A stretch of DNA of 51,739 nt. It comes from Escherichia phage vB_EcoS_G29-2. Both the position numbers and the translations under genes were made by a program. The DNA lies in the sequence record NC_049822.1, one strand, 5' to 3'. The notes beneath the pieces are model-generated. The model made no database searches. It saw only the letters and a list, made by a program, of their open reading frames with translations, and was not told the DNA's origin. Shown here in pieces: positions 33,872-34,576 of this stretch (positions are counted from its first letter, which is position 1; each line of letters opens with the position of its first letter).

Positions 33872-34576
33872 TTAGCAACCACAGCAACCAGTCGGCGGAG
33901 TCGCCGGAGTTGGTAGCTTGAAGTTTACCAGTTGATTGACTTGGTTGATTTTGCAGTTGAGTTCCGAAGTCTGCTTCTCTTGAGAAAGAGCAAAGCGCGC
34001 TTCCTGCAACTGAGCTTTCATATCGCAAATCAAAACAGCCTGAGCATCAGCGAACTGTTGACGCATCAGATCTCGAGTTGCGTTACCTTGTCGCTCAATG
34101 TTCAGGTTAGTCTCGCAGCAACATCTTTCGGCTGCAATCTGCGCCTGATAGGAACGCTCAAGAGCATTAACATCAGCAGCATTAATCGCAGCAACTGTCT
34201 GGTTAGTACCGCTAACAATCGCGGTATTCAGTCCGGCGAAACCTTGCACCGATGCAAGCAGGTTTTGCGTATTCTGGCTGGTAATGCCGTTAAAGGTTGA
34301 TGCGGCGGATCGCTCAACGGTAAGGTTTGTGGAGTTTTGGCCTTGCAGAGTTTGCAGCCCCAGGTTGTTTACGCCTGTCTGGATGTTATTAATGCCATCA
34401 AGAACAGCGTTAGCACCGACAGCAACAGCAGCACCATCACCACCATAACCACCACGACCATTAAAGCCGTTACCAAACCATGACCCAATCAGGCCACCAA
34501 CAGCACCACCAAGTCCAGCCGCGCCAGCTTCGCCACCAAAACCACCACCAGTAGGGAGTAAAGTCATATCTGACAT
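33872..34576 (-). CDS. glycine-rich protein with Cys-rich C-terminus (function unknown)
   Basis: RBS AAGAGGAA; N-terminal Gly-rich stretch, Q/N-rich middle, ends TGCCGC. Confidence 0.55.
   Translation of the reverse strand: MSDMTLLPTGGGFGGEAGAAGLGGAVGGLIGSWFGNGFNGRGGYGGDGAAVAVGANAVLDGINNIQTGVNNLGLQTLQGQNSTNLTVERSAASTFNGITSQNTQNLLASVQGFAGLNTAIVSGTNQTVAAINAADVNALERSYQAQIAAERCCCETNLNIERQGNATRDLMRQQFADAQAVLICDMKAQLQEARFALSQEKQTSELNCKINQVNQLVNFKLPTPATPPTGCCGC

Follow-up and report, generated by a model that had tools for sequence, protein, structure and literature searches.

Gene g1 of Escherichia phage vB_EcoS_G29-2 (Drexlerviridae, Tempevirinae, Hanrivervirus; 51,739 bp), located at 33872..34576 on the minus strand, encodes a Gly-rich protein of 234 amino acids that combines an N-terminal glycine zipper, a very long α-helix, and clustered cysteines. 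The window analyzed was the whole 51,739-nt stretch, to which the coordinates refer. The architecture of the protein is secure, its function is not. The reading favored here, to which we assign a probability of roughly 40%, is that of a homo-oligomeric, membrane-inserted envelope stalk that has a dispensable accessory function, for example in superinfection exclusion or in the timing of lysis.

Architecture of the g1 product

An AlphaFold2 model obtained with 114 diverse sequences reached a predicted local distance difference test (pLDDT) score of 76.8 and was used throughout (29 close sequences gave 57.7). Residues 54-220 (33917..34417, minus strand) were modeled as a single continuous amphipathic α-helix of approximately 250 Å, with pLDDT values above 90 at residues 120-210; residues 1-52 and 221-234 were predicted to be unstructured in the monomer. 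Asn, Gln, Ser, and Thr account for 38% of the helix and charged residues for 14%. At 3.62-3.64, the hydrophobic periodicity points to an amphipathic helix that packs into a nearly straight bundle, and a canonical heptad coiled coil (periodicity 3.5) was ruled out by this value. Foldseek searches of the model against PDB and BFVD gave zero matches, as expected for a single helix.

The start codon ATG at 34576 opens the family-wide conserved N-terminus MSDMTLLP, and a longer open reading frame (ORF) beginning at 34624 had no backing among homologues. This acidic, strictly conserved motif is followed by a Gly-rich segment with the zipper G23-G27-G31-G35 (residues 1-48, 34433..34576, minus strand). 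The earlier note had described the N-terminus as almost pure Gly/Ala; it is Gly-rich, but "almost pure" goes too far for a region in which Gly and Ala make up 30 of the first 60 residues. The other features listed there, a Q/N/T-rich body, a CCCE motif (residues 152-155), and a terminal TGCCGC, are all present, in an overall composition of 32 Gly, 30 Ala, 23 Asn, 20 Gln, 18 Thr, and 8 Cys.

The CCC motif (C152-C154, 34115..34123, minus strand) is nearly invariant across the family, where it lies in the context CCCETN(L/R)NI. The C-terminal TGCCGC (33875..33892, minus strand), which follows the Pro-rich stretch PTPATPP, is found in only part of the family; family-wide, the C-terminus takes either a Cys/Gly-rich form (GCC, GCCGC, CGCGNGCGC) or a Thr/Ala-rich form. 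C208 and the terminal CC never occur apart in enterobacterial members, which have either 4 or 7-8 cysteines in total; this suggests that the pair forms one joint disulfide or metal site.

The zipper segment of G29-2 is weakly hydrophobic (KD19 = 1.13). At the same position, distant homologues carry a strongly hydrophobic, transmembrane (TM)-like segment such as WVWVFFLFFLLAW, with KD19 values of at least 1.6 in 19 of 35 distinct sequences, and they retain CCCETN(L/R)NI(D/E) almost unchanged.

The GGT-rich, Gly-coding repeats of g1 contain a frameshift in one related locus (L018:5735-6531), and the divergent g1 N-terminus of AVIO78A (MZ726797) is consistent with a similar event. Either slippage or sequencing errors might be concentrated at these repeats.

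The g1 family and its selection

The g1 product is identical to YP_009901603.1, labeled "hypothetical protein" in GenBank. Its family is widespread, uncharacterized, and without assigned function. Clustering of the homologues at E ≤ 1e-3 gave 230 groups at 90% identity; at 50% identity there were 121 representatives, most of them between 200 and 290 amino acids in length. Relatives turned up in 195 matches from IMG/VR and in 228 phage records of GenBank. The ratio of nonsynonymous to synonymous substitution rates (dN/dS) was 0.08-0.12. Given the number of homologues and this ratio, the ORF is far beyond chance; g1 is a real gene under strong purifying selection. The g1 region is 92-95% identical in nucleotide sequence to those of slyngel, pSf-1, and JakobBernoulli. 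Compared with close relatives, the Gly-rich residues 1-52 showed a dN of 0 at a dS of 0.05-0.13, indicating that this region is not a neutral linker.

The family occurs in phages of Gram-negative as well as Gram-positive hosts. Phages of Clostridium perfringens and contigs of gut phages contained distant homologues (approximately 30% identity), and metagenome-assembled genomes with such homologues were labeled Lachnospiraceae, Negativicutes, Bacteroidales, and others. A few records name hosts that do not fit: MG065636, MG065637, and MG065669 ("Campylobacter phage" A16a, A15b, and A123), CRI74228.1 ("Chlamydia trachomatis"), and MH230177 ("Aeromonas phage SD04"). All are 93-96% identical (DNA or protein) to E. 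coli Hanrivervirus or Seuratvirus sequences in this region, and they are probably contaminants or carry mislabeled hosts.

Scans of curated libraries gave no significant Pfam, NCBIfam, or PADLOC family for g1, and the two PHROGs that match it (9288 and 16490) are function-unassigned. No PHROG, Pfam, or Foldseek match linked it to known tail or head families; evident homology to any known structural protein was sought and none was found.

Loss of g1 in the BASEL collection and elsewhere

Intact in most isolates obtained by other laboratories, g1 was destroyed again and again in one collection. All six Queuovirinae of the 2021 BASEL collection carry g1 lesions, each of them different. SeppeHuegi has a nonsense mutation; in KurtStettler a deletion fuses the S74 chaperone of the fiber to about codon 17 of g1; in VogelGryff, WildeMaa, and FritzHoffmann deletions extend from g1 into the downstream genes; and in GottfriedDienst the deletion spans the 3′ end of the fiber gene and most of g1. 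Three of these phages (SeppeHuegi, KurtStettler, and GottfriedDienst) have lost g1 and kept the three genes behind it, g2-g4. The KurtStettler product (bas22_0024, L120:2627-4159) is an in-frame fusion of 510 amino acids in which the S74 intramolecular-chaperone region of the fiber is joined to g1, starting at about residue 17 of the latter; its annotation reads "putative lateral tail fiber chaperone". Annotations as "tail fiber protein" also overlap the 3′ end of g1 in PLYYY01, SHIN8, and GottfriedDienst. One of the two BASEL Hanriverviruses is affected as well: JakobBernoulli, likewise from the 2021 collection, carries the nonsense mutation Q78*, which leaves a C-terminal ORF of 125 amino acids that is also present in Fulano1 and other contigs. 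In T5-like Epseptimavirus only decayed g1 remnants, with an in-frame stop and a frameshift, persist after the lateral tail fiber gene.

Among 27 non-BASEL Seuratvirus-like records, g1 was disrupted in five versus six of six in BASEL (Fisher's exact p = 4e-4), the other 22 being taken as intact from full-length matches and annotation as a single coding sequence. According to the 2021 BASEL protocol, samples were treated with 2.5% chloroform, phages were precipitated with 40 mM ZnCl2 and plated directly on K-12 ΔRM, and poor plaque formers were discarded. The 2025 protocol also used ZnCl2, and the paper makes no mention of chloroform; KarinMuster, isolated by it on an O16-restored host, has an intact cassette of g1 and its partner genes. 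In the work of Korf et al., from which G29-2 stems, isolation relied on filtration and enrichment, and chloroform served for DNA extraction only; the Danish HiTS method makes no mention of chloroform, and the isolates from both have intact g1. Some step of the 2021 pipeline thus favors g1-null variants, small as the numbers are. Chloroform, the rough ΔRM host, and the choice of plaques are confounded in that pipeline. ZnCl2 precipitation as the sole selective step was rejected because the ZnCl2-isolated KarinMuster keeps its cassette intact.

A mobile four-gene cassette

As the earlier note had proposed, g1 heads a leftward, function-unassigned four-gene unit between ssb (32287..32736, plus strand), which flanks it at the g4 side, and the tail fiber gene (34755..37034, minus strand) at the g1 side. 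The gene order is conserved. On the minus strand, g1 is followed by g2 (33501..33824, 107 amino acids, PHROG 9157), g3 (32995..33486, 163 amino acids, PHROG 8329), and g4 (32751..33008, 85 amino acids, PHROG 7239). The order g1-g2-g3-g4 was found in Hanrivervirus, Seuratvirus/Nonagvirus, Edwardsiella phage eiAU, Yersinia phage vB_YenM_22, and Nonanavirus KarinMuster, and in nearly all of 34 IMG/VR loci at ≥54% identity; the exceptions were one locus without g3 and one with a fragmented g1 and no g2.

The position of the cassette varies among phage groups. It follows the lateral tail fiber gene in Hanrivervirus, Seuratvirus, and eiAU, lies between terL and the portal gene in Nonanavirus, and stands alone among early genes in vB_YenM_22; the T1-like phage Sfin-1 has the same junction without the cassette. 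With this variation and the empty Sfin-1 junction, the cassette behaves like a mobile unit of the moron type. Counting Epseptimavirus, g1 itself adjoins the lateral tail fiber gene in four lineages (with Hanrivervirus, Seuratvirus/Nonagvirus, and eiAU); this adjacency is absent in Nonanavirus, vB_YenM_22, and the Clostridium perfringens phages, and so it speaks neither clearly for nor clearly against the flexible fiber accessory protein that the earlier note had also suggested. In Shigella phage ESh4 (ON528718.1) the cassette region aligns in two pieces and an "endonuclease VII" is annotated under the match, which suggests that a gene was inserted within or beside the cassette.

The g2 product is a weak candidate for a MazG-like, all-α nucleoside triphosphate (NTP) pyrophosphohydrolase. 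Its family profile matched PDB entry 2p06 (E = 7e-5), and Pfam MazG was hit by two of 14 family members at 3.7e-4 at best, below the family threshold. The homologues have a variable N-terminus, His-rich in several (HHHYHH), and a conserved MazG-like helix pair E-x-x-E ... E-x-x-D. Single-sequence PDB searches gave no match for g2 or g3, and g3 and g4 yielded nothing in Pfam and NCBIfam scans, their PHROG matches being function-unassigned only. None of g1-g4 matched a PADLOC anti-phage defense model at E ≤ 0.1, no immunity-like matches were found for g2-g4, and no covariation of Cys counts was detected between g1 and g2-g4.

Transcription and translation signals

A Shine-Dalgarno sequence, AAGAGGA (34584..34590, minus strand), was read from the sequence 7 nt before the ATG, and the ribosome-binding site of g1 is strong. 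The intrinsic terminator of the tail fiber gene lies upstream of g1 (34716..34741, minus strand, −18.7 kcal/mol), and a GC-rich hairpin followed by TTTTTT lies between g1 and g2 (33846..33865, minus strand, −14.9 kcal/mol). The latter resembles a canonical intrinsic terminator or attenuator. Of 28 distinct sequences between g1 and g2, most retained it with compensatory stem changes, and 17 had a T-run of at least four residues; the hairpin that the earlier note had suspected as an attenuator 3′ of g1 is real and conserved, which supports that reading. Bracketed by two intrinsic terminators, g1 constitutes an autonomous transcription unit, and the conserved hairpin implies that it is made in excess over g2-g4. 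It is probably the most strongly expressed gene of the cassette.

Further upstream, a candidate −10 element, CATACT, followed by a 5′-leader inverted repeat GTAAC...GTTGC (34618..34646, minus strand), was picked out by eye, without statistics. The −10-like hexamers CATACT, TAGAAT, and TATGCT were found upstream of g1 in the window and eight other loci, including two with a near-consensus promoter TTGTCA-16-TAGAAT. Other lineages have compensatory variants of the repeat (GTAAC/GTTAC, GTAGC/GCTAC, GTGGC/GCCAC, and GTAGTC/GACTAC), which could form a stem-loop in the 5′ mRNA or serve as an operator.

The module of the distant homologues

The distant homologues lack g2-g4 and sit in another conserved module (loci L049-L092, L114, and L115). 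The gene order is c1 (approximately 165 amino acids with a Q-rich N-terminus, present in 31 of 32 analyzed loci), a Met-rich protein of 75-98 amino acids, g1, a BclA_C-like protein, DUF7841, and a weakly ferritin-like protein. The BclA_C-like neighbor, with a TNF-like head, has a Cys-rich N-terminus (MACNCNQ..., MACSLYNNNGFGCGGC...). One may speculate that the Met-rich protein chaperones the hydrophobic segment of g1. A sigma-70 region-4-like gene is sometimes located upstream of the gut-phage module. The Clostridium perfringens phages carry g1 among early genes, approximately 4 kb past the lysis genes. For four of the distant homologues the contigs were too short to reveal any gene neighbors. 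Homology of g2-g4 to the partners in the gut-phage module was rejected, with hhalign probabilities of at most 3.6% throughout.

Resemblance to influenza HA2

The only PDB resemblance found for g1 was to the influenza hemagglutinin subunit HA2. It appeared at E ~0.05 in the single-sequence search, and with the family profile the top 60 matches were all HA2 (best E = 7e-4, 22.6 bits), profile positions 24-107 aligning with HA2 residues 4-89, i.e. the fusion peptide and helix A. In a block-shuffle control, real HA2 scored above 992-1000 of 1000 shuffled copies; the match thus reflects residue order and not composition alone. The Pfam hemagglutinin family gave no match at E ≤ 1 for g1 or in 37 family members. 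Both proteins have a Gly-rich, aromatic-containing amphiphilic segment that passes directly into a long N/Q/T-rich helix. Unlike HA2, g1 has no HA1, no C-terminal TM segment, and no loop or hairpin region for folding back, only the helix 54-220 and a 14-residue tail. With its borderline score, the likeness appears architectural and is probably convergent rather than homologous. The GenBank label "putative sugar-binding protein" on the BASEL homologues probably goes back to this likeness; it would be a mis-inference, since what matched is the fusion subunit, not the receptor-binding one.

Candidate functions of g1

According to the favored reading, helices of g1 would associate in register into a parallel bundle, Cys layers would lock the bundle via disulfides or bound metal, and the clustered N-terminal zippers would enter the infected cell's cytoplasmic membrane, from which the stalk would project. 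Its role may then be to block DNA entry of competing phages or to modulate membrane integrity or lysis timing; g1 would be an asset where phages mix in natural populations and could be dispensed with, or carry a cost, when a single phage is grown in plaque culture. An envelope stalk is preferred because distant homologues have a TM-like segment, the cassette shows moron-like mobility, its partner genes are of a non-structural type, and both types of host envelope are represented. Strong purifying selection combined with frequent loss, as in the BASEL lesions and the decayed T5-like copies, is also counted in its favor, as are the architecture of the protein, its resemblance to HA2, and the autonomy of the unit with its conserved hairpin. 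Several observations weigh against it. The weakly hydrophobic g1 of E. coli phages may bind the membrane peripherally or never; K/R counts are equal on both flanks of the TM-like segment and favor neither topology; and no homologue of known function was found for the family. The N/Q/T-rich, low-charge helix, the adjacency to the fiber gene, and the BclA_C-like neighbor fit a virion fiber as well, and the contrast between the lesion-rich, chloroform-treated BASEL-2021 samples and the intact g1 of chloroform-free pipelines is easier to understand if g1 is on the virion.

These last points lead to the main rival, which we consider possible though clearly less probable: a dispensable virion-associated fiber or stalk, built as a trimeric rod with cystine-knot-like Cys layers, one end of which attaches to the particle or to a head-domain partner, and which affects adsorption or particle stability. 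If g1 loss was selected at the chloroform step, g1 would have to be a virion component, as only such a component is selectable there, and the enrichment of lesions in the chloroform-treated collection, with g1 intact in collections made without chloroform, counts in favor of a fiber. The position directly downstream of the gene for the lateral tail fiber in four lineages, the fiber-like composition (38% N/Q/S/T, 14% charged), and the excess over g2-g4 implied by the hairpin fit equally, and the Cys-rich N-terminus of the BclA_C-like neighbor could complement the Cys-rich C-terminus of g1. Against a fiber, strongly hydrophobic segments such as WVWVFFLFFLLAW are atypical of soluble virion fibers, g1 has no fixed place in the structural module (early genes in Clostridium perfringens phages), its cassette partners are of a non-structural, MazG-like type, and no PHROG tail or head family matched. 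A literature search for virion proteomics of g1-bearing phages found no usable data set (Sfin-1 lacks the cassette, and STGO-35-1 was uninformative). A scaffold in the infected cell is improbable but worth stating: g1 might be a cytoplasm-facing membrane tether that acts with g2-g4 in DNA or nucleotide metabolism, by analogy to phi29 p16.7 with its N-terminal TM segment, coiled coil, and C-terminal binding end. The MazG-like NTP pyrophosphohydrolase in the cassette and the replication and recombination genes bordering it in most genomes would suit such a tether, the N-flank of the TM-like segment is acidic, as an N-out, C-in orientation would allow, and Cys clusters could bind metal in the reducing cytoplasm. 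It is difficult to reconcile with distant homologues that lack all of g2-g4, with the three BASEL phages that lost g1 and retain g2-g4, and with a charge-poor, N/Q/T-rich helix that would be unusual for a cytoplasmic coiled coil.

The earlier note had been reminded of colicin-like toxins, and the least probable of the explanations weighed is indeed a colicin- or microcin-like toxin released at lysis, with a translocating or pore-forming Gly-rich N-terminus. A Gly-rich N-terminal region is common to g1, colicins, and class II microcins, the glycine zipper would suit such a role, and the frequent loss makes g1 appear costly or toxic. The invariant SDMTLL motif, acidic and hydrophobic, might be taken as loosely recalling TonB boxes; it is not a consensus TonB box, and the g1 N-terminus is Gly-rich and disordered in the model. 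The colicin reading is not supported: g1 ends 14 residues past the helix, has no cytotoxic, receptor-binding, or immunity module, no export gene, and no match to colicin, pyocin, microcin, or other bacteriocin families. The family also occurs in phages of Gram-positive hosts, where there is no Tol/Ton import, and killing uninfected hosts would bring no obvious gain to a virulent phage. Building on the HA2 resemblance, it is conceivable, though doubtful, that the g1 family, spread over phages of enterobacteria, clostridia, and other gut bacteria, are fusion-subunit-like membrane-inserting stalks of a newly recognized kind that combine a fusion-peptide-like zipper with a 250 Å Cys-locked helical bundle; equally doubtful is that such stalks act as a membrane-penetration, fusion-like, or envelope-spanning device, on the particle or in the infected cell. 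A small share of the probability, below that given to the virion fiber, is left for explanations other than those listed.

Comparison with known systems and implications

The envelope stalk proposed here can be compared with superinfection-exclusion and receptor-masking morons such as T4 Sp and Imm, HK97 gp15, lactococcal Sie2009, TP-J34 Ltp, T5 Llp, and T1/phi80 Cor. These are small, dispensable, autonomous units, often near tail genes, with an N-terminal membrane anchor, and they occur in phages of both Gram types. In contrast to them, g1 has a 250 Å helix and Cys layers, and it shares no sequence similarity with them. Spanins (lambda Rz/Rz1 and the u-spanin gp11 of T1) also combine a membrane anchor, a long helical rod of periplasmic scale, cross-linkable cysteines, and a Pro-rich end. 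A spanin function was rejected since g1 lies outside the lysis cassette, its lineage has a u-spanin of its own, and homologues exist in phages whose Gram-positive hosts lack an outer membrane. JakobBernoulli, a close relative, encodes its holin, endolysin, and u-spanin approximately 10 kb from g1, and the sequence showed neither a lipobox nor an Rz1-like gene embedded in g1 or next to it.

Trimeric rods of similar size are known from the P22 gp26 needle (233 amino acids, ~240 Å), the GPCCG knot of collagen III, and BclA-type fibers, and terminal CC motifs could cross-link three chains as in cystine-knotted fibers; the BclA_C-like neighbor of g1 in gut-phage modules adds to this likeness. The differences are the lack of homology (zero Foldseek matches), a periodicity of 3.62-3.64 instead of 3.5, the hydrophobic N-terminus, and the non-essential nature of g1. 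The pattern GxxxGxxxGxxxG in a Gly/Ala/Leu/Val-rich segment also occurs in the N-terminus of VacA, in the second transmembrane domain (TMD2) of pinholin S21-68, and in PrP 112-130. With these glycine-zipper channel formers g1 shares a motif and not a family, and its zipper is joined to a very long helix. From colicins it differs by the absence of toxic, receptor, or immunity modules and of family matches.

The combination of a zipper or TM segment, a very long helix, an invariant CCC motif, and a Cys-rich tail is unusual among phage proteins. If the HA2-like design represents real membrane penetration, g1 would be considerably more novel than an envelope accessory protein of a known functional kind, and a fusion-like stalk could make particles chloroform-labile, biasing collections made with chloroform toward g1-defective variants. 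The specific destruction of g1 in a widely used collection suggests that the gene has a strong phenotype. Isolation protocols may silently select against accessory functions, which matters for collections whose members are used as "wild-type" phages.

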